Shown here: one piece after another, positions 10,111-35,867 of the stretch
Position numbering within the stretch: the first letter of the stretch is position 1
Layout of the letters: every line of letters starts with the position of its first letter
Sequence record: OP172790
Direction: 5' to 3' (one strand)
DNA from: Escherichia phage ECO319P1
Length of the DNA stretch: 64,000 nt
Translations under genes and position numbers: made by a program
Notes under the pieces: generated by a model
What the model was told of the DNA's origin: nothing
Databases searched by the model: none
Seen by the model: only the letters and a program-made list of their open reading frames with translations

Positions 10111-10317
10111 ATGAAATATATGTTATTGATTCTTATAGCTTTTAATTGTTATGGGTATCAAACTGACGAAACTGATATGCTGTTCAGTGCTGAGGATTAT
10201 GCACAAGAGCGTCATGTTCAGCGAGTTAAGCCTCACAAAGAAGACAAGAAAGTTATTGTTGTAACTCAAGAGGAACTCGACCGAGTCCTCAAATCAACCA
10301 AAGAAGGAAGTAAATAA
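10111..10317 (+). CDS. small secreted or membrane protein
   Basis: start at ATG 10111 after GGAGGT RBS; N-terminal hydrophobic segment. Confidence 0.45.
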   Translation: MKYMLLILIAFNCYGYQTDETDMLFSAEDYAQERHVQRVKPHKEDKKVIVVTQEELDRVLKSTKEGSK

Positions 10318-10892
10318 TGGCTGTTGTTCTCCGTAAAAACGCATCCCTGAACCTGTCCAAATCTGTAGCGGCTCTGACCACTTACCGTTTCGGCCTGTCT
10401 TGGGACGAAAGCGCTGACCTCGATGCTGTTGCAATGGTTGTTGATGAAAACGGTAAGCTGTTCCCGCCTGTTGAAAACAACATGGCATACTACGGCAACT
10501 GCACCGCTAACAAATTCGGCAATGCTGAAAACCCTGTTCCAGGTCTGACTCACTCCGGTGATGCTCGTGACGGCTCTGCTGCTGGCGACGACGAAACCAT
10601 CGTTATCGACACCACTAAGCTTCAGAAAGACCGCATCATCATTGCTGTAACCTCTTACAGTGAAAATGGCCCGGTTCCGTTCGCTGCTTCCGTTAATCCG
10701 GTTGCTAAACTGTACGACGACAAAGGCAATGTACTGGTCGAAGTTAAGCTGGACGAAAACGTTGCATTCAGCACCGCTGTTGAGTTCGTAGAGATTGCGA
10801 AAGTTAATGGCGACTGGACTGTAACCAACCTGACCAACCCGGCTGGTAACTCCGAAAACGGCCTGACCGACCTGCTGGCTGCACGTAGCTAA
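10317..10892 (+). CDS. terD: TerD-family protein
   Basis: GLSWDESADLDA and HSGDARDG...GDDE motifs align with E. coli TerD as recalled; length 191 aa. Confidence 0.75.
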   Translation: MAVVLRKNASLNLSKSVAALTTYRFGLSWDESADLDAVAMVVDENGKLFPPVENNMAYYGNCTANKFGNAENPVPGLTHSGDARDGSAAGDDETIVIDTTKLQKDRIIIAVTSYSENGPVPFAASVNPVAKLYDDKGNVLVEVKLDENVAFSTAVEFVEIAKVNGDWTVTNLTNPAGNSENGLTDLLAARS

Positions 10893-11154
10893 TGTGGGGC
10901 AGCGGTCGCAGGGCTAACAGCATGTCCAAAGGGCGTGTTGGGCATACTTCGATTCGCAGACCCTCAACTGGTACTGAAACCCCGTTCGGACAACTCCGGG
11001 CGGGTGACTTCTTTACCCACAACGGGCGTCTGTTCTTAAAGACCAACCTGATTGATGCTGTTGAAGTCCCTGACGGGTCTGACGCAATGATAGGGACTAA
11101 TCAGTTCTCTGAAGAGTTCTTAGTTCAGGTTGAAAATGTGGTAATCCACATCCA

Positions 11155-11180
11155 ATAATTATTGCACATTATTATAAGGA
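11155..11180 (+). promoter_or_regulatory. phage promoter element (TAATTATTGCACATTATTATAAGGAG)
   Basis: one of five copies of the conserved element; directly upstream of a gene. Confidence 0.5.
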
Positions 11181-11187
11181 GTATCTC

Positions 11188-11283
11188 ATGCAACTTCCTA
11201 CTGGATTCATAGTGCTCCTTGTTATCTTGTATACACTGAATGCACTGCAACAAGAAGGATATCTTTCATGGCTCTCATTCTGA
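11188..11283 (+). CDS. small hydrophobic leader peptide (31 aa)
   Basis: strong AAGGAG RBS straight after the promoter element; overlaps the start of the following TerD-family gene. Confidence 0.3.
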   Translation: MQLPTGFIVLLVILYTLNALQQEGYLSWLSF

Positions 11284-11927
11284 AGAAGAACCAATCCACT
11301 GACCTCGTATCTGATAAAGGTACTCCGGTTCTGAACCTCACTGTTGGTGCTAATTGGGGTATGATTAGCAAAACTGGTGATAGCAAAGCGGCTGGCTTCT
11401 TCAACCGTATGGCATCTGCTCTGGGTGCTGGAGATACAGTGAAAACCGCTGTTGACCTTGACCTGTCAATGGTCTTCGCTAACGCCAAAGGCGAACTGGT
11501 AGACATGTGCTACTACGGCAATAAGCGTCTGTTCAGTGGTGCAGTTCTGCACTCTGGTGACGACCTCGTTGGTGACGACGAGCAGAACGAAGATGATAAC
11601 GAACTGATTAAGTTCGAAGGCATGAAGGTTCCGTTCGATGTTACCACTGTGTACGTTGTACTGAACTCCTTCCGCCATCAGATGTTCGATGAAATCCCAT
11701 ACATCGGCATCTCTTTCTACGAAGGTCTGGTGAACAAGGGCTCCAAAGGTCTGCGATTCGCTGAGGCTCGTGTTGAGAAAGAGAAAGAAGCTGCTGGCAA
11801 AGAGTGCTGCATCCTCGCTAAGATTGTCCGTACTGGCAAAGGCTGGAACGTGACTCCGCTGTTCGACTACACCTCGGACACCAATCTGCGCGACCTTGCT
11901 CGCACTGCAATTCGTAAGCACGGCTAA
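11268..11927 (+). CDS. TerD-family paralog
   Basis: VDLDLS and HSGDDLVGDDE motifs. Confidence 0.65.
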   Translation: MALILKKNQSTDLVSDKGTPVLNLTVGANWGMISKTGDSKAAGFFNRMASALGAGDTVKTAVDLDLSMVFANAKGELVDMCYYGNKRLFSGAVLHSGDDLVGDDEQNEDDNELIKFEGMKVPFDVTTVYVVLNSFRHQMFDEIPYIGISFYEGLVNKGSKGLRFAEARVEKEKEAAGKECCILAKIVRTGKGWNVTPLFDYTSDTNLRDLARTAIRKHG

Positions 11928-11986
11928 TCGTGCCAAGCCCACTTTAGGATAGAGGTGGGCAACAACTATAAGGAGAGTAATCCCCG

Positions 11987-12412
11987 ATGAGTTGGTTTAT
12001 GTGCTGGTTAGCACTAACTCTTAACATTTACACGGAGGCAGGTGGAGAGGGTGAGCAAGGTATGAGGATGATTGCTGATGTAGCGGTCACTCGTACTACG
12101 CACAAAGATTACCCAGATAACATTAGCAAAGTTATTCTTCAACCGGGTCAATTTTCTTGGACTTATAACTTAAAGTCGAGGTCTGAGAAAGGATTAGTTG
12201 CTTATAATAAGCGTCTCTTAAAGTCTAAGAGAATGACTAATCCAAAAGAAAGAGAAGCATATGCCATAGCGATGAAAGTCGCGTACAGAGCTTTACAGCC
12301 GGGGTATAAACCCAAGTACAGGTATACTCACTTCTACAGTGGGACAGACAAGCCCAAGTGGGCTAAAAACAAACGTGCCGTCAAACACGGCAACCATTAC
12401 TTTATCAAATAA
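11987..12412 (+). CDS. SleB-like cell wall hydrolase
   Basis: NIYTEAGGEGEQG...VAVTRTTH...QPGQFSW pattern of the Hydrolase_2 family; no signal peptide. Confidence 0.55.
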   Translation: MSWFMCWLALTLNIYTEAGGEGEQGMRMIADVAVTRTTHKDYPDNISKVILQPGQFSWTYNLKSRSEKGLVAYNKRLLKSKRMTNPKEREAYAIAMKVAYRALQPGYKPKYRYTHFYSGTDKPKWAKNKRAVKHGNHYFIK

Positions 12413-29383: not shown

Positions 29384-29488
29384 TCGCTATTTTATTATGG
29401 ATAGCCTAATGGAAATCGCTGGAATCATGTTCCAGTATGATAGCGACCTTGATATTATTTTCGTAACTGATGAAATGGAGATTCTATA

Positions 29489-30043
29489 ATGTTACTTTCT
29501 GCACCCCAACTGCATAACTTAATCGACGATGGTGTTATTGATGCGTTACATGAAAACGTTAACTCAGCAAGTATCGACGTTCGTATTGGCTCTGAAATTC
29601 TGGTGGAAGCTAAGGTCAGCGAACTCACCGCTCCCGTGGACATCGCAGCTAAGGAATCTCCTCAGTTCGACAAAGTGACAATCCCCGAAGAAGGCGTTGT
29701 TATTAAGCCGGGTCAGTGCTTCTTGGCTCACACCGTTGAGACATTTAACCTGCCCGACACTATCAGTGGTCAATTCATTGAACGTTCCACTGTTGCTCGT
29801 TGTTTCCTTGAACACATGCAGGCTGGTTGGGCTGATGCTGGTTGGCATGGCGCTCAGCTCACTCTTGAGTTCAAGAACATGAACGAACACCACTCCCTGT
29901 TAATCAAGCCGGGTATGCGTATCGGTCAGATGGTATTCTTCCAGCACGAAACTGTTGGTGAGGATTCCTATGCTGTAAAAGGCAACTACAACAACCAACG
30001 TGGTGCAACTCAAGCTTACTCAGGAGAAGGTCATAATGTATAA
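29489..30043 (+). CDS. dcd: dCTP deaminase
   Basis: dUTPase-fold Dcd-like N-terminus; 184 aa. Confidence 0.7.
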   Translation: MLLSAPQLHNLIDDGVIDALHENVNSASIDVRIGSEILVEAKVSELTAPVDIAAKESPQFDKVTIPEEGVVIKPGQCFLAHTVETFNLPDTISGQFIERSTVARCFLEHMQAGWADAGWHGAQLTLEFKNMNEHHSLLIKPGMRIGQMVFFQHETVGEDSYAVKGNYNNQRGATQAYSGEGHNV

Positions 30044-30320
30044 GATTATTAAGTTCTACAGCGACACTTGTGCGCCTTGTAAAGCAATGGCTCCAATCTT
30101 TGACGACATTGCAGAAGAACTGTCCACAGATACTGTGGTATTCGGTTCAACCAACATCGGTGAAAGTGACAACCGCGCTGTTGCTCAGTCATTCGGTGTT
30201 CGTGGTCTTCCGACTGTTGTGATTCTGAAAGATGATGAAGCAGTTGGCATCAAAACTGGTGCTCAGACTAAAGATTCACTGAAGAAATTCATTACCGACA
30301 CAATTGGGGAGGCCAGCTAA
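30036..30320 (+). CDS. thioredoxin
   Basis: CAPC active site; start at ATG 30036 after GGAGAAGG RBS. Confidence 0.7.
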   Translation: MYKIIKFYSDTCAPCKAMAPIFDDIAEELSTDTVVFGSTNIGESDNRAVAQSFGVRGLPTVVILKDDEAVGIKTGAQTKDSLKKFITDTIGEAS

Positions 30321-30589
30321 TGGCCTTACTTAATCACATCCACCGCGACATGCTTAATCGTGTTATCAAACATGAAGATATTGTCGTCTGGTCAAATGGT
30401 AAGTACAACCAAAAGATGCGCTTAGCGCGTGTGGTTGATACTACACCTCAGAAGGTTCGCATCCAGTTGATTGACTCCCAGACAACCACACTGGCTCGCC
30501 CTCGGAATTTAATCGTTATCAGTGCTCAGATTGCTGCTAATCTGGAAGGTAACGTTGGTGCTAACATGGATATGGAGGCCACCCGATGA
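30320..30589 (+). CDS. hypothetical protein
   Basis: 89 aa ORF. Confidence 0.4.
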   Translation: MALLNHIHRDMLNRVIKHEDIVVWSNGKYNQKMRLARVVDTTPQKVRIQLIDSQTTTLARPRNLIVISAQIAANLEGNVGANMDMEATR

Positions 30590-31038
30590 TTCCTACGAAA
30601 CCTAAATCTTCAAGCAAGTCAAGTACAGACACTCTGCAAAGTTTGACTGGCAACCTGACTCTGCTTTACATCAAAGCAAAGAACTATCACTGGAATACAA
30701 CCGGCCCGAACTTCTACGGAGACCATCACACCTTTGATGGGATTCAGGATGGAGCATTGGACTGGATTGATACAGTTGGTGAACGTATTCGTGCACTGCA
30801 ACAGGGCATCTGTGCTTGTGCTGCTGCGTATCTTGAAGATGCGTGGTTCCCAGAAGGTGACTTTGAGTTAGACGCCGAGGGAATGAAAGCGGATATGGTT
30901 AAAACTCTTGACTGTATCAGTGCTCATATCATGGACATGATTAAGAGCGGCGAATTCGATGAAGTAACCTCTAACATCCTTCAGGATTTATGTGCATTCA
31001 TTGATAAGCAGAATTACTTTGTACGTAGTTCTCTGTAA
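30586..31038 (+). CDS. Dps-like ferritin-fold protein
   Basis: LYIKAKNYHWNTTGPNFYGDHHTFDGIQDG...VGERIRAL pattern of Dps. Confidence 0.55.
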   Translation: MIPTKPKSSSKSSTDTLQSLTGNLTLLYIKAKNYHWNTTGPNFYGDHHTFDGIQDGALDWIDTVGERIRALQQGICACAAAYLEDAWFPEGDFELDAEGMKADMVKTLDCISAHIMDMIKSGEFDEVTSNILQDLCAFIDKQNYFVRSSL

Positions 31039-31044
31039 GTAATA

Positions 31045-31070
31045 GGCTGGCGGATGCTGGCCTTTTCTGT
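31045..31070 (+). terminator. intrinsic terminator
   Basis: 7-bp stem (two G-U pairs), GGAT loop, TTTT tail. Confidence 0.5.
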
Positions 31071-31088
31071 CTATACAAGGAGTGTATA

Positions 31089-33212
31089 ATGGTTCGTGTA
31101 ACTAAACGTGATGGTAAGAACGTCGAGTTTGATATTAACCGTGTGATTAATGCCATTATGGCTGCTCAAAGCAATTTGGGTAAATCAAACTTTGATGAAG
31201 CACTGTCGATTGCAATGGCTGTGCAAGACCGATACATCAACGAAGAAAGTGTAACGATTGCTGATATTCAGAGTATGGTTGAAGACCTGCTGATGGTGAA
31301 AGACCCAGAGGTGGCTCGTAAGTATATCGAATATCGTGCAAAGCGTGACCGTGCTCGTGAGGAACAGTCCCCATTGGCGGTTGCCATTCGTGGATTAGTG
31401 GAGCAGACGGATGAATCAATCCTCAAAGAAAACGCTAACAAGGACGCAAAAGTCTTCCCTGTACAGCGAGATTTACTGGCAGGCGTGGTGTCTAAGCACT
31501 TCGCTCGCAATTACCTTCTTCCTCGTGATATTGTTGATGCTCACGAGAGAGGCGAAATTCATTACCACGATTTGGACTACTCTCCATTCCTACCTATGAC
31601 CAACTGTTGTTTGGTTGACCTCAAGGGTATGTTGAAGAATGGTTTCAAGTTAGGTAACGCTCAGATTGAGTCACCGAAATCTATTGGTGTGGCATGTGCA
31701 GTAATGGCTCAGATTACCGCTCAAGTTGCTTCTCACCAGTACGGTGGGACGACGTTCGCTAATATTGACCAAGTACTCGCACCGTATGCAGAGACAACCT
31801 TTAATAAGCACATGCAACGTGGTTATGATTGGGGGGTTTCAGATACGGAAGCCTATGCCAAAGAACTCACTGTTAAAGAAATTTATGATGGGATTCAAGC
31901 ATATGAATACGAAATTAATACCCTCTTCACCACAAATGGACAGCAACCATTCGTTACTGTTACATTCGGTATGGGAACTAGCTGGTTCGAACGAGAAATC
32001 CAGAAAGCAATCCTCAAGGTTCGTATTAAGGGTCTCGGCGCGGAAGGTCTCACTGCGGTTTTCCCGAAACTCGTAATGTTCATGGACGAGGGTATCAACC
32101 TTAAACCGGAAGACCCGAATTATGATATTAAGCAGCTTGCACTTGAATGCTCCTCCAAGCGTCTGTATCCAGATATTATCAGCGCGAAAGCTAACAGAGC
32201 TATCACTGGCTCAAACGTACCTGTTAGTCCTATGGGGTGTCGTTCTTTCCTCAGTGTGTGGAAGGACGGAGATGGAAATGAGGTGCTCGACGGACGCAAC
32301 AACCTCGGCGTTGTTAGTCTCAACCTTCCTCGTATTGCCATCGAATCAGGGAAGGATTTCAACAAATTCCTCACTATCCTTGACGAACGCCTTACACTTG
32401 CTAAAAGAGCACTTGATACCCGCATTGAACGCTTACGTGGTGTTAAAGCTGCTGTTGCCCCAATTCTCTACACCGAGGGAGCGTTTGGAGTTCGTCTCCA
32501 ACCCGATGATGATATCATCAATATCTTCAAGCACGGTCGAAGCTCTATTAGCTTGGGATACATCGGACTCCATGAAGTCGGACTTCTGATGTGGGATAAG
32601 TCCCCTTCGGATGATGAAGAAGTTGCACGTTCTTGTCGAGCAATTATTCGTCATTTAGCTAATGCTACTGAGAGGTGGAAGGAAGAGTCTGAAGAGGGCT
32701 GGGGTTATAGCTTATACGCTACACCTTCAGAGTCTCTGTGTGACCGATTCTGTCGTTTGGATAAAGAACAATTTGGGGAGATTGCTGGTGTCACTGACAA
32801 AGATTATTACACTAATAGTTTCCATCAGGATGTTTATAAGCATTCTAACCCTTTCGACAAGATTGACCATGAAGCGCCTTATCACTTTATTTCAAGTGCG
32901 GGTCATATTAGCTATGCTGAGTTTCCGAATGTTCGTAACAACCTCCAAGGTTTGGAAACAGTTTGGGACTACGCAATGAGCCATCTGGACTACTTCGGGA
33001 CAAACACTCCGAGCGATAAATGCTTGAAGTGCCACTTCGAAGGTGAGTTCAAGATTAACAGTGAAGGTTTCCACTGTCCGAATTGCGGCAATCATGACAG
33101 CAAATCAATGTCAGTGATTCGTCGTGTATGTGGGTATTTGGGTTCTCCAAATGCTCGTGGATTTAACCACGGAAAGAACGAGGAGGTCATTCGTCGTGTC
33201 AAACATGTCTGA
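31089..33212 (+). CDS. nrdD: anaerobic ribonucleoside-triphosphate reductase
   Basis: ATP-cone N-terminus, C-terminal glycyl-radical motif RRVCGYLGS and Zn ribbon CLKC...CPNC. Confidence 0.9.
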   Translation: MVRVTKRDGKNVEFDINRVINAIMAAQSNLGKSNFDEALSIAMAVQDRYINEESVTIADIQSMVEDLLMVKDPEVARKYIEYRAKRDRAREEQSPLAVAIRGLVEQTDESILKENANKDAKVFPVQRDLLAGVVSKHFARNYLLPRDIVDAHERGEIHYHDLDYSPFLPMTNCCLVDLKGMLKNGFKLGNAQIESPKSIGVACAVMAQITAQVASHQYGGTTFANIDQVLAPYAETTFNKHMQRGYDWGVSDTEAYAKELTVKEIYDGIQAYEYEINTLFTTNGQQPFVTVTFGMGTSWFEREIQKAILKVRIKGLGAEGLTAVFPKLVMFMDEGINLKPEDPNYDIKQLALECSSKRLYPDIISAKANRAITGSNVPVSPMGCRSFLSVWKDGDGNEVLDGRNNLGVVSLNLPRIAIESGKDFNKFLTILDERLTLAKRALDTRIERLRGVKAAVAPILYTEGAFGVRLQPDDDIINIFKHGRSSISLGYIGLHEVGLLMWDKSPSDDEEVARSCRAIIRHLANATERWKEESEEGWGYSLYATPSESLCDRFCRLDKEQFGEIAGVTDKDYYTNSFHQDVYKHSNPFDKIDHEAPYHFISSAGHISYAEFPNVRNNLQGLETVWDYAMSHLDYFGTNTPSDKCLKCHFEGEFKINSEGFHCPNCGNHDSKSMSVIRRVCGYLGSPNARGFNHGKNEEVIRRVKHV

Positions 33213-33237
33213 TGAACATCCGGATTTTTAGTATCGA

Positions 33238-33266
33238 GGGGCTCCTGCGGGAGCCTTTTCTTTTTG
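33238..33266 (+). terminator. intrinsic terminator after nrdD
   Basis: GGCTCC-TGCG-GGAGCC hairpin followed by TTTTCTTTTT. Confidence 0.7.
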
Positions 33267-33276
33267 GAGGTTTAAA

Positions 33277-33429
33277 TGATTGTTCGTAACCGATTGACTG
33301 GTCAATTCGAAAATGCCACTTTCAAAGATGGCTGTTGGGGTTTCCATGAAACTGACGTACAAGAAGGGCTGCCTGATTGCAGCACTGAAGAACAAAGAAG
33401 TGGAAGCGATAGCTCACCAAGCTAATTGC
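33277..33429 (+). CDS. small upstream ORF (50 aa) overlapping the macro gene start
   Basis: strong GGAGG RBS 5 nt upstream of ATG 33277; different frame from macro gene. Confidence 0.3.
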
Positions 33430-33816
33430 TTTTGCACCATGAAGTCTGGCATAGCACCACAGATTGCTAATGCTTGGCCTCAAGTCCGTGAAGTCGATAA
33501 GTTGACTAACTACGGTGACAAGGATAAGATGGGTTCATACTCACTTGCCACTGTTCCCGAAGGTTTTGTGTTCAACATCTATGGTCAATACCATTGGAAT
33601 CGGAGAAACGCTGGTTATGGCACTTCTTATGAGCATCTTGGGATGGGGCTGTCTAGCGTCGCTGACTTTATGGTTAATCATAAGGTTCAAACTTTGGGTC
33701 TGCCTCGAATTGGTTGTGGACTTGCTGGAGGCGATTGGGGGATTGTAGAACACCTAATCAAACACCACTTTGCACACACCGACATTGAAGTAATTGTCTA
33801 CGAACTGGAGAAGTAA
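33346..33816 (+). CDS. macro domain protein
   Basis: KLTYKKGCLIAALKNKEVEAIAHQAN aligns with the macro N-terminal G...AN motif; start placed at ATG 33346. Confidence 0.65.
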   Translation: MKLTYKKGCLIAALKNKEVEAIAHQANCFCTMKSGIAPQIANAWPQVREVDKLTNYGDKDKMGSYSLATVPEGFVFNIYGQYHWNRRNAGYGTSYEHLGMGLSSVADFMVNHKVQTLGLPRIGCGLAGGDWGIVEHLIKHHFAHTDIEVIVYELEK

Positions 33817-34943
33817 TGTTAAAGTTAAAAGTACTGGAAGAACTCGGTAAGCCATACAAAATCTTCACAGACCATGTGGAGAGCAGTGCTATTGAGCAGT
33901 TTGTTGCAGTGATGCAGCAGCCTGATGTGAAACAAGGTGCATTAATGCCTGATGTTCATGCAGGTTATGTTCTGCCAATTGGTGGTGTAGTTGCTACTGA
34001 GTGGACAATCTACCCATCGTTTGTCGGTTACGACATTGGTTGTGGTGTCTGCACCATGCCAACGGATATCAGTGCTCTCGACTTACTGGAAAACCCAGCT
34101 AAGTATAAAGCAGCAGTTGAAAAGGTTGTACCTGTGGGCTTCACTGTCCATCAGCAACCATTCGACTTAGCTGAACTGGAACGCCACATTGGTCGTGCTC
34201 CAGAAAGTATTCGTGACATTGCTGAGAGCCATCTGACTCAGGTTGGTACTCTTGGTGGTGGTAATCACTTTGTTGAAATCGGTATCGCTGAGAAAGATGG
34301 TCGTGTTCACATCAGCATTCACTCAGGCTCTCGTGGCATGGGTGCTCGTGTTGCTGAGAAATACATGCAGCTTTCAGGTGGTGAAGGTATCAACCCAATT
34401 GACACTCGTGAACCACTTGGTCGTGAGTATCTGGCTGCTATGAATTACTGCTTACGTTGGGCATTGTTCAACCGTAAGATGATGGTTAAGAATATTATGG
34501 AAGAGTTAGGTCTGGAGTTTAACACCTATCGTACACCTGATATCTTCATCAACCGTAATCATAACCACGCAGAATTCAAGGATGGTTTGTGGATTCATCG
34601 TAAGGGAGCTACACATGCTGAAGATGGAATGTTCGGCGTTATCCCAGCTAACATGCGTGATGGAGTTTACATTGTACGTGGGCGCGGTAACCCTGACTCT
34701 CTTTGCTCTTCTTCTCACGGCGCTGGTCGTGTCATGTCTCGGTCAAAAGCCAAAAAGACTTTCTCTCTGGAAGACTTCCAGTATCAGATGGGTAATGTCG
34801 ATGCTGATGGGTTTACTATTGATGAAAAGCGTATTGACGAAGCACCGGGTGCATATAAAGACATTCACGAAGTGATGAAAAATCAGACTGACTTGATTGA
34901 CATCATTGACCATGTTAAACCAGTTGTAAACGTTAAGGGTTAA
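33816..34943 (+). CDS. rtcB: RtcB-type RNA ligase
   Basis: GGNHF, HNHAEF and SSSHGAGR motifs. Confidence 0.8.
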   Translation: MLKLKVLEELGKPYKIFTDHVESSAIEQFVAVMQQPDVKQGALMPDVHAGYVLPIGGVVATEWTIYPSFVGYDIGCGVCTMPTDISALDLLENPAKYKAAVEKVVPVGFTVHQQPFDLAELERHIGRAPESIRDIAESHLTQVGTLGGGNHFVEIGIAEKDGRVHISIHSGSRGMGARVAEKYMQLSGGEGINPIDTREPLGREYLAAMNYCLRWALFNRKMMVKNIMEELGLEFNTYRTPDIFINRNHNHAEFKDGLWIHRKGATHAEDGMFGVIPANMRDGVYIVRGRGNPDSLCSSSHGAGRVMSRSKAKKTFSLEDFQYQMGNVDADGFTIDEKRIDEAPGAYKDIHEVMKNQTDLIDIIDHVKPVVNVKG

Positions 34944-34945
34944 TT

Positions 34946-35194
34946 ATGAGCTTCACAACAATGCCAACTTGTCCACGCTGTAGCTTCAAGATGCACATCA
35001 GTGCTCGCGGTCAGTATAGTTGTTCCAATTGTGGACACCGTAAGGATATTCCGGGAAGTTCTTCTAACAGTGGAACTCCGGCATATGACCCTTGGGTTAT
35101 GAGTCAGTACGACTCTACTCCGAGCTATGACCCAACACCATCTTACTCAAGTGACTGCTCAAGCTCTGACTTTGGCAGTTGCTCTTTCGACTAA
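34946..35194 (+). CDS. small zinc-ribbon protein with Ser/Pro-rich tail
   Basis: CPRC...CSNC. Confidence 0.4.
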   Translation: MSFTTMPTCPRCSFKMHISARGQYSCSNCGHRKDIPGSSSNSGTPAYDPWVMSQYDSTPSYDPTPSYSSDCSSSDFGSCSFD

Positions 35195-35203
35195 GGCGGA
35201 ATA

Positions 35204-35704
35204 ATGAATTACCATCAATATTACCCAACGGATATGCTAAATGGGCCGGGAATCAGGAACGTACTCTTCGTCAGTGGTTGCACACACGGATGCAAAGGTT
35301 GTTACAATGAGTCTACTTGGAATCCAAAATCGGGTATGGCCTTCACAAAAGAGTTGGAAGACCAGATTATCCGAGACCTCCAAGATACGCGAATCAAGCG
35401 TGATGGACTCACCCTCTCCGGAGGTGACCCGCTTCATGAAAGAAATATTCTACCCCTCATTCAGTTAGTACAGCGAGTGAGAAAAGAGTGCCCCGATAAG
35501 ACAATCTGGATGTGGACTGGATATACGCTTCCTGAACTGGAGGCTATGCGTGACCACACTCAGGTTCACAGTGACCGGTATTATCTGGCAACACTTGTTG
35601 ATGTTCTTGTTGATGGTAAGTTTGTTCAAGAGTTGCATGACCCTACGCTGAAGTTTGTTGGGTCGTCCAATCAAAACATTATCGAAATTAAAAATGTATC
35701 GTAA
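35204..35704 (+). CDS. nrdG: anaerobic RNR activating enzyme (radical SAM)
   Basis: C-x3-C-x2-C cluster in GCTHGCKGC near N-terminus; 166 aa. Confidence 0.75.
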   Translation: MNYHQYYPTDMLNGPGIRNVLFVSGCTHGCKGCYNESTWNPKSGMAFTKELEDQIIRDLQDTRIKRDGLTLSGGDPLHERNILPLIQLVQRVRKECPDKTIWMWTGYTLPELEAMRDHTQVHSDRYYLATLVDVLVDGKFVQELHDPTLKFVGSSNQNIIEIKNVS

Positions 35705-35867
35705 CCTGCAACGTCGAAATCCAGAATGTGACTGGTGTTTTTGTCTCTTACAAGTTGTAAGGGGTGAAGATTATAATGACTATTATAAATGTCCGCAATG
35801 TGGTGAGACTACTCCAATGCCTCAACCCAACTTCGACGATTACGACGATTTAGATTACTTAAATTAA
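35694..35867 (+). CDS. small zinc-ribbon protein
   Basis: CDWCFC...CPQC; start uncertain. Confidence 0.3.
   Translation: MYRNLQRRNPECDWCFCLLQVVRGEDYNDYYKCPQCGETTPMPQPNFDDYDDLDYLN

Follow-up and report, generated by a model that had tools for sequence, protein, structure and literature searches.

A Dps-family mini-ferritin in the replication block of Escherichia phage ECO319P1 and its C3-morphotype relatives

The 150-amino-acid (aa) open reading frame (ORF) described here, carried by Escherichia phage ECO319P1 (sequence record OP172790; "the window" means the whole 64,000-nucleotide stretch analyzed), encodes a genuine Dps-family protein, a statement on family identity alone that we make with very high confidence. 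Within the C3-morphotype podophages (Grimontviridae, Gordonclarkvirinae, and Lahexavirus), the gene belongs to the core set and has been inherited vertically. We consider it rather probable that the protein acts as a classical Dps, guarding the replicating phage DNA and the nucleotide and redox machinery of the infected cell from iron-catalyzed oxidation, and such a protective role would be independent of the anaerobic ribonucleotide reductase proteins NrdD and NrdG. For annotation, the gene should be recorded as a real Dps with its catalytic site intact, and not as an accessory of ribonucleotide reductase (RNR), an integrase, or a proven DNA-binding protein. The features of the region are collected in Table 1.

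TABLE 1 Coordinates in the window of the Dps gene, its neighbors, and the features discussed in the text
Feature	Position	Strand	Basis
Thioredoxin	30036..30320	+	Pfam PF00085, E = 2e-18
89-aa ORF, phi32_68 family, phrog_10984	30320..30589	+	PHROG match; 31% identity to phi32_68, E = 2e-15
Shine-Dalgarno GGAGG, 7 nt 5' of the Dps ATG	30574..30578	+	Direct sequence reading
Dps-family mini-ferritin CDS, 150 aa	30586..31038	+	ORF map; Pfam, PHROG, and PDB matches; AF2/Foldseek; dN/dS
N-terminal tail, residues 1-16, MIPTKPKSSSKSSTDT; K5, K7, K11; predicted disordered	30586..30633	+	pLDDT; homologue tail comparison
Span of ferroxidase ligand codons	30688..30783	+	Alignment with E. coli and Listeria Dps; codons read from sequence
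H35 codon	30688..30690	+	Ferroxidase center
W36 codon	30691..30693	+	Adjacent Trp
H47 codon	30724..30726	+	Ferroxidase center
D51 codon	30736..30738	+	Ferroxidase center
D62 codon	30769..30771	+	Ferroxidase center
E66 codon	30781..30783	+	Ferroxidase center
Terminator-like hairpin, 8-bp stem, GGAU loop, followed by TTTTCTGTCT	31044..31063	+	Scan, fold, comparison with A24 and GAP52
NrdD, class III RNR large subunit; N-terminal ATP-cone at about 31089-31373	31089..33212	+	Pfam NRDD, Gly_radical, ATP-cone
NrdG activase	35204..35704	+	Pfam Fer4_12, Radical_SAM

Family identity and predicted fold

The ATG of the Dps gene shares the tetranucleotide ATGA with the TGA stop of the preceding ORF, as read directly from the sequence. 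The 150-aa product matched the Pfam Ferritin profile PF00210 with an E value of 4.6e-10 over residues 16 to 147, so that the whole domain characteristic of the family (PF00210, IPR002177) is covered, and the score of 40 bits exceeds the gathering score of 24.5 bits. The protein also matched PHROG 3636 (E = 1e-43). When all PDB sequences were searched with phmmer, 54 matches were obtained, every one of them a Dps-family protein. The best was the Dps of B. brevis (5e-13), other top matches included B. anthracis Dlp-2, B. subtilis MrgA, and S. aureus Dps, and E. coli Dps was matched at 1.5e-8. Dps models were likewise the sole models matched in an NCBIfam scan. Among these, the enterobacterial Dps equivalog NF006975 gave only 42.2 bits against a cutoff of 114, a score so far below the cutoff that the phage protein is to be regarded as a member of the family and not as an orthologue of the host Dps. 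Compared with the gene of Cronobacter phage vB_CsaP_GAP52 (GAP52), the window gene shows 26.5 synonymous and 9.5 nonsynonymous differences (dS 0.37, dN 0.027), and the dN/dS of 0.07 (0.074) indicates that it is under strong purifying selection.

A monomer model was built with AF2 from an alignment of the 150-aa protein with 14 database homologues, and it reached a mean pLDDT of 88.3 and a pTM of 0.83. Its helices, at residues 17 to 37, 43 to 70, 79 to 84, 97 to 121, and 126 to 148, form the four-helix bundle of Dps proteins with the short BC helix (79 to 84) in the long crossover loop. In a Foldseek search of the PDB, the first 50 matches were all Dps proteins, with TM scores of 0.80 to 0.84 and root mean square deviations, over compact alignments, of about 1.4 to 1.8 Å. 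The first-pass annotation, made from the letters of the sequence, had read the ORF as a Dps-like ferritin-fold protein, had asked for confirmation by HMM, and had said that the reading should fall if HMM or structure did not support a ferritin fold; the Pfam match, the AF2 model, and the uniformly Dps hits of Foldseek all bear it out.

The bacterial Dps dodecamers used for comparison were those of B. brevis (1n1q), B. anthracis (Dlp-1 and Dlp-2), S. aureus (2d5k), B. subtilis (MrgA, 2chp), E. coli (1dps and 1f30), and Listeria (1qgh). The phage protein resembles them in predicted fold, in length, and in helix layout, including the short BC helix, whereas its amino acid sequence is only 20 to 28% identical to theirs. 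It also differs in being expressed from a lytic genome, where bacterial Dps proteins are under the control of OxyR, sigma-S, or PerR. The close match to dodecameric structures predicts that the phage protein would likewise form a hollow shell of 12 subunits with 23 symmetry.

Distribution and origin of the gene

Over 96% of its length, the region from 29400 to 35800 of the window matches the DNA of the Cronobacter phages GAP52 and A24, both of which are Grimontviridae, Crifsvirus, at about 90% identity. Searching 50,697 phage records with tblastn recovered Dps in 140. The amino acid identity was 95% for GAP52 and A24, about 59% for Salmonella phages 7-11 and SE131 and Aeromonas phage BUCT695, 42 to 44% for the Proteus Privateer group together with Cronobacter CsaP_009, 44% for the Aeromonas LAh phages, and about 41% for the phiEco32-like Kuraviruses, with 92 Escherichia records. 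Matches of about 27% came from a few phages of Clostridium and Staphylococcus. The remark in the first-pass annotation that phage-encoded Dps is uncommon is thus correct for phages at large, but it does not hold for this lineage, in which Dps is a known core gene (PMC4281155).

Both the gene and its family assignment were in fact known before, from the phiEco32 annotation and from the papers on phages SU10 and Privateer. The phiEco32 record has described gp67 as a "DNA-binding protein, member of the Dps family" since the genome was deposited. In SU10, thioredoxin (CDS65), the DPS-domain protein CDS67, and CDS68 were listed in a 2014 paper as part of the small number of middle genes shared by all C3 phages sequenced at that time (PMC4281155). 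It is therefore already established that Dps is a core gene of the prolate podophages (C3 morphotype) of the phiEco32/7-11/GAP52 group, and our comparison agrees, with syntenic Dps genes in genomes of the GAP52, 7-11, Privateer, LAh, and Kuravirus types and in metagenomic relatives. In every lineage of the synteny table, Dps lies within a replication block of dCTP deaminase (DCD), thioredoxin (Trx), ThyX, and PhoH genes. The orthologues of phiEco32 gp67 include GAP52_062, A24 QQG33681, 7-11 gp073, Privateer gp068, and SU10 CDS67, and the window gene shares with them the same position in the replication module, usually after the same phi32_68-family ORF. The phiEco32 protein differs in being longer (187 aa), with an acidic N-terminal extension, and its gene has no NrdD or ATP-cone neighbor, unlike the window, GAP52, and A24, in which the downstream gene encodes a full NrdD. 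In the searchable literature, phage Dps proteins appear in annotation-level mentions, and no experimental biochemical or genetic work on any of them was found. Many Kuravirus records in GenBank name the Dps orthologue "integrase"; phiEco32 gp67 matches the Ferritin family only.

Close relatives of the protein were found in phages and not in cellular genomes. E. coli Dps is only 20% identical to it, and in GTDB, taken as one genome per species, the best full-length matches were at about 35% identity or less, with the exception of one 568-bp scaffold in a Herbiconiux assembly. That scaffold is probably phage contamination, since the 89-aa phage ORF also has a homologue in that assembly. A pattern-limited scan of IMG/VR yielded 27 loci, and those with more than 40% identity over the whole protein were all C3-type phages. 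Recent capture from a host was considered and rejected, given the distance to E. coli Dps and the fact that the sole close "bacterial" match is the probable contaminant; with no close cellular relative, the gene belongs to an old, vertically inherited phage lineage. Ferritin-fold Dps homologues also occur in Clostridium phage phiCT9441A, in Staphylococcus phage SA 1306 Kay, and in phrog_858, a set drawn from phages and prophages. These are about 27% identical, lie in unrelated contexts from which all of the partner genes are missing, and were probably acquired independently. It is a modest question why a strictly lytic phage lineage has retained a mini-ferritin of its own over so long a time.

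Position relative to the anaerobic ribonucleotide reductase genes

The gene order in the window is primase-helicase, DNA polymerase exonuclease subunit, dCTP deaminase, thioredoxin, the 89-aa ORF, Dps, NrdD, Macro, RtcB, an 82-aa ORF with CxxC pairs, and NrdG, so that three genes occupy the interval from nrdD to nrdG. Dps had been placed by the first-pass annotation between thioredoxin and nrdD and described as embedded in an anaerobic RNR operon. It does lie upstream of nrdD, but thioredoxin is not its immediate neighbor, as the 89-aa ORF intervenes, and the description as embedded has to be withdrawn, Dps being 5' of nrdD and outside any nrdD-nrdG unit.

A terminator-like hairpin sits in the 50-nt gap that separates the stop codon of Dps from the start of nrdD, with a fold energy of -15.8 kcal/mol (z = -1.65). 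It is identical in A24. In GAP52, the 5' arm is changed from GG to TC and the 3' arm from CT to GA, a double substitution that is compensatory and preserves the stem. This comparison, with one compensated event among three genomes, argues, if thinly, that transcription is at least partly punctuated between Dps and nrdD. Read-through past the hairpin is likely, as the search for a promoter 5' of nrdD was negative: a scan for sigma-70 promoters gave 15 against 11.1 expected, which is no enrichment, and none at that place was convincing. The phage promoter of the phiEco32 type, TAATGTATA, was also considered and rejected for the window, which contains 10 matches with at most one mismatch where 14 would arise by chance. 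The copy without mismatches, at 30034, overlaps the start codon of thioredoxin and is for that reason unusable as evidence. In phiEco32 itself, a copy of TAATGTATA with one mismatch lies upstream of phi32_68 and fits the published middle-gene boundary. Another terminator-like hairpin is found 3' of nrdD, at 33236 to 33259. It is not conserved in A24, and nrdD is therefore not generally a hairpin-bracketed cassette.

The genes around Dps were annotated in 37 related loci by phmmer with the window proteins as queries, together with record annotations and Pfam scans. Dps lies directly 5' of nrdD in the window, in GAP52, A24, and the GAP52-like genomes generally, and also in the distant metagenomic locus L015, in which Dps is 43% identical and NrdD is in three pieces; in loci L008 and L009, the two genes are separated by one 76-aa ORF. 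Such adjacency favors the idea of the first-pass annotation that Dps could protect the glycyl-radical RNR or manage iron for NrdG. As an accessory of the class III RNR, Dps would scavenge oxidants that destroy the glycyl radical of NrdD, or hold and deliver iron for the [4Fe-4S] cluster of NrdG. The same reading gains from the gene that follows Dps in phages of the 7-11, PKM, Privateer, and LAh types, which is an ATP-cone ORF. The ATP-cone of the window NrdD is 42 to 52% identical to these free-standing ORFs and only 35 to 42% identical to the ATP-cones of NrdD from LAh_8, the T4-like leN, and E. coli, and this closer relationship suggests that a Dps-NrdD neighborhood was ancestral.

However, the association does not extend to the lineage as a whole, and we regard the accessory role as improbable. 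No NrdD adjoins Dps in phages of the 7-11, PKM.Lu.22.1, and Privateer types. In LAh-type phages, represented by LAh_8, nrdD and nrdG lie upstream, with other genes between them and Dps. In the sampled Kuravirus loci, that of phiEco32 included, the surroundings of Dps contain neither NrdD, NrdG, nor an ATP-cone, and the Kuravirus phages are reported to be without an RNR homologue (PMC7881722). The complete 89.9-kb genome of Salmonella phage 7-11 carries Dps (59% identical), the 89-aa ORF, thioredoxin, dCTP deaminase, the Macro protein, and an ATP-cone ORF, but neither an NrdD core nor NrdG was found in it by tblastn with the window NrdD core and NrdG or in its annotation. A further point against the accessory role is that Fe-S cluster assembly runs on the ISC and SUF systems and not on Dps. 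With the Kuravirus loci, phage 7-11, and the conserved hairpin that separates Dps from nrdD, co-occurrence or co-transcription with nrdD and nrdG is not obligatory, and the proposal that Dps protects the glycyl-radical enzyme or manages iron for NrdG finds no support. Since Dps is kept under purifying selection where NrdD and NrdG are missing, guarding or supplying that enzyme is not its main job.

Conserved ferroxidase ligands, variable tail, and likely role

To locate the ligand residues, we aligned the window protein with the Dps proteins of E. coli and Listeria innocua, both checked by residue numbering, and with six annotated orthologues from phages and three homologues from metagenomes. 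H35, W36, H47, D62, and E66 were the same in all phage sequences and in E. coli and Listeria Dps, and D51 was nearly invariant, with a Glu in PKM.Lu.22.1. These six residues align with H51, W52, H63, D67, D78, and E82 of E. coli Dps, and the five ligands align with H31, H43, D47, D58, and E62 of Listeria Dps, residues that form the inter-subunit ferroxidase center. The five ligands of the ferroxidase site and the Trp beside it are thus common to the phage and bacterial proteins. Within the phage clade, 35 alignment columns are invariant, and the clade-specific invariant residues include W87 and E90, which set it apart from bacterial Dps. The pore differs as well. The Listeria pore aspartates D121, D126, and D130 correspond to S121, E126, and N130 in phage Dps, with one of the three positions still acidic and N130 invariant within the close-clade alignment, and because the pore-lining Asp residues are partly replaced, iron entry may differ.

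The N-terminal tail shows no such constancy. Residues 1 to 13 are disordered in the AF2 model (pLDDT below 50 for residues 1 to 4 and 6 to 13), and the tail is mildly basic, with K5, K7, and K11 against one Asp. The E. coli Dps binds DNA through a basic N-terminal tail. Among the homologues, the tail is basic in Privateer, neutral or acidic in LAh_8 (4 basic and 4 acidic residues), L015, and phiEco32 (4 basic and 7 acidic residues), and the pI of the whole protein is 4.6 to 5.4. The label "DNA-binding protein" is therefore unsupported by any conserved determinant. With the ligands invariant and the tail charge variable, iron chemistry is the conserved feature.

This contrast bears on the alternative that Dps mainly coats or compacts phage or host DNA or is associated with the virion, in nuclease protection, nucleoid remodeling, or prolate-head packaging, with iron chemistry secondary. 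The "DNA-binding protein" annotation runs throughout the phage group, and K5, K7, and K11 of the window protein recall K5, K8, and K10 of E. coli Dps. The protein is also made in relatives: it was detected by mass spectrometry (MS) in CsCl-purified virions of Privateer, whose authors call its function unverified (PMC7881722), and in SU10 with 35.8% coverage (PMC4281155). However, the SU10 sample was a PEG preparation, in which non-structural proteins were possible according to its authors (PMC4281155), and the main text of the SU10 cryo-EM/MS study makes no mention of Dps or gp67, naming gp20 to gp24 as the ejection proteins. An iron-loaded dodecamer of about 9 nm could, moreover, copurify with virions. 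Together with the unconserved tail charge, the acidic pI, and the invariance of the ferroxidase ligands, these points lead us to consider a mainly DNA-coating or virion role unlikely.

A classical protective Dps, the reading we prefer, could work as follows. The protein is made with the co-directional replication and nucleotide-metabolism block of the lytic phage, at a stage when the host, given the takeover factors of these phages, would probably be unable to induce its own Dps/OxyR response, which may be why such protection matters. By analogy with all solved members of the family, the subunits would assemble into the 12-subunit hollow shell, with ferroxidase sites at the two-fold interfaces formed by H35, H47, and D51 of one subunit and D62 and E66 of its partner. 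The shell would oxidize Fe2+, preferably with H2O2, and store the Fe3+ inside. Consumption of Fe2+ and H2O2 would remove both Fenton reagents and so keep Fenton chemistry off the replicating DNA.

The neighbors of Dps raise one more possibility. The 89-aa ORF is its most constant upstream neighbor, and the product has a dN of 0 compared with GAP52. It gave no Pfam or NCBIfam match. In its AF2 model (pLDDT 75), a five-strand SH3/Tudor-like barrel is flanked by one helix at the N terminus and another at the C terminus, and the Foldseek matches were generic Tudor, PWWP, and SH3 barrels at weak scores (E of about 3e-3, TM of about 0.5); an assignment of function from these fold matches was dropped, the barrels being both generic and weak. 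Downstream, in every C3 lineage sampled apart from Kuravirus, Dps is followed by a gene that starts with an ATP-cone, either as the N-terminal domain of NrdD or as a free-standing ORF of 89 to 99 aa.

Dps, the 89-aa phi32_68-family protein, and, outside Kuravirus, the downstream ATP-cone might then form a module with a non-classical activity, such as nucleotide-sensed control of iron, redox state, or replication. The gp68-like gene adjoins Dps in five lineages (GAP52-like, Privateer-like, LAh, Kuravirus, and L015), and this, with the lack of any nonsynonymous change in its product and the recurrent ATP-cone, is what speaks for such a module. We think it very doubtful. Several ORFs and ThyX part the gp68-like gene from Dps in 7-11, L007, and PKM, the Kuraviruses have no ATP-cone, and a conserved order is expected in a vertically inherited block even without functional coupling. 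A long shot, to our minds, is the pair of ideas that a nucleotide-sensing ATP-cone protein and the 89-aa SH3/Tudor-like protein regulate or target the ferroxidase shell as a conserved module, or that the Dps shell truly belongs to the virion or is ejected from it, at which the Privateer MS result hints. If a module did exist, the stand-alone ATP-cones would be functional regulators that have outlived the RNR catalytic core.

The history of these ATP-cones can be read in part from the window NrdD. Its catalytic core is 70% identical to that of LAh_8, 68% to that of the T4-like leN, and 62% to that of E. coli, and the order Dps-NrdD-Macro in the window corresponds to Dps-ATPcone-Macro in 7-11. 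The simplest account of these sequences would be that the NrdD core was lost and an intact ATP-cone ORF was kept; the reverse route, fusion of an NrdD core to a resident ATP-cone, is possible. Intact stand-alone ATP-cone ORFs beside Dps in RNR-less genomes may interest those who work on RNR allostery.

The ATP-cone and the 89-amino-acid ORF beside Dps

In every sampled lineage outside the Kuravirus group, the next gene after Dps begins with an ATP-cone, with one small ORF intervening between Dps and the ATP-cone/NrdD in the metagenomic relatives L008 and L009. The full NrdD carries a fused ATP-cone in the window, in the Cronobacter phages GAP52 and A24, and in the metagenomic locus L015. Phages of the 7-11, PKM, Privateer, and LAh types encode the ATP-cone as a separate ORF of 89 to 99 amino acids. 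The ATP-cone of the window NrdD is 42 to 52% identical to these stand-alone ORFs and 35 to 42% identical to the ATP-cones of other NrdDs; the core of the window NrdD shares 62 to 70% identity with other NrdDs. In Salmonella phage 7-11, the gene order is Dps-ATPcone-Macro, and neither the annotation nor tblastn with the window NrdD core and NrdG revealed a ribonucleotide reductase anywhere in the genome. Together with the pattern of ATP-cone identities, this arrangement suggests that the NrdD core was lost and an intact ATP-cone ORF remained, which may possibly still be functional.

On the other side of Dps, the end of an 89-amino-acid ORF overlaps the Dps start (ATGA). Its family adjoins Dps in five phage lineages, and dN is 0 in comparison with GAP52. 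An AlphaFold2 model (pLDDT of 75) places a five-strand SH3/Tudor/PWWP-like barrel between one helix at the N-terminus and another at the C-terminus; fold matches to the model were weak (E value of about 3e-3).

Features around Dps, nrdD, and nrdG and in related loci
Feature	Location	Strand	Remark
89-aa ORF	window 30320-30589	+	phi32_68/phrog_10984 family
Terminator-like hairpin and T-run	window 31044-31063	+	between Dps and nrdD
ATP-cone of NrdD	window 31089-31373		N-terminal part of nrdD
Second hairpin	window 33236-33259		3' of nrdD
Macro-domain protein and RtcB RNA ligase	window 33313-34943	+	between nrdD and nrdG
Two small ORFs, paired CxxC motifs	window 34946-35194, 35655-35867	+	either side of nrdG
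Stand-alone ATP-cone ORFs	L003:5417-5716, L006:5408-5677, L004:5464-5760, L005:5408-5680, L007:5461-5733
Homing-endonuclease gene	L001 (GAP52):8570-9058, L008:7754-8236
NrdD frame, three pieces	L015:8503-9360, 10187-10423, 11154-12143
L042	Herbiconiux daphne scaffold643		568 bp

Hairpins, insertions, and neighboring genes

The hairpin between Dps and nrdD is conserved in A24, and GAP52 keeps its stem through a compensatory GG>TC/CT>GA change. The hairpin following nrdD is stronger, and A24 has none matching it. A homing-endonuclease gene overlaps the 3' end of nrdD in GAP52 and L008 (HNH_3 type in the latter) and is missing from the window (region 33213-33312), A24, and L009. The three-piece frame in L015 suggests that intervening elements split its NrdD.

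The Macro (a weak Pfam call, E = 5e-4) and RtcB proteins, along with an RnlB RNA ligase 2 additionally encoded upstream in GAP52, look like an RNA-repair set inside the nucleotide-metabolism block. Judging from their sequences, both CxxC ORFs flanking nrdG are putatively zinc-ribbon-like; the upstream one has a low-complexity tail rich in Ser, Pro, Tyr, and Asp, and its sole family match is a very weak TFS-type one (E = 0.007).

Database labels and bacterial matches

Many Kuravirus GenBank records (H21-H30, H44, H50, H54, H55, and H58-H60) name the Dps orthologue "integrase." This looks like a propagated misannotation, because Ferritin is the only Pfam domain matched by phiEco32 gp67. For the phage Dps and the 89-amino-acid ORF, the only close "bacterial" matches (L042, P0033, and P0034) lie on tiny scaffolds of Actinobacteria assemblies. 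These assemblies are from Herbiconiux daphne and Kocuria sp., and the Kocuria sp. match is flagged UNVERIFIED_CONTAM. The scaffolds from both organisms most likely represent enterobacterial-phage contamination of the assemblies.
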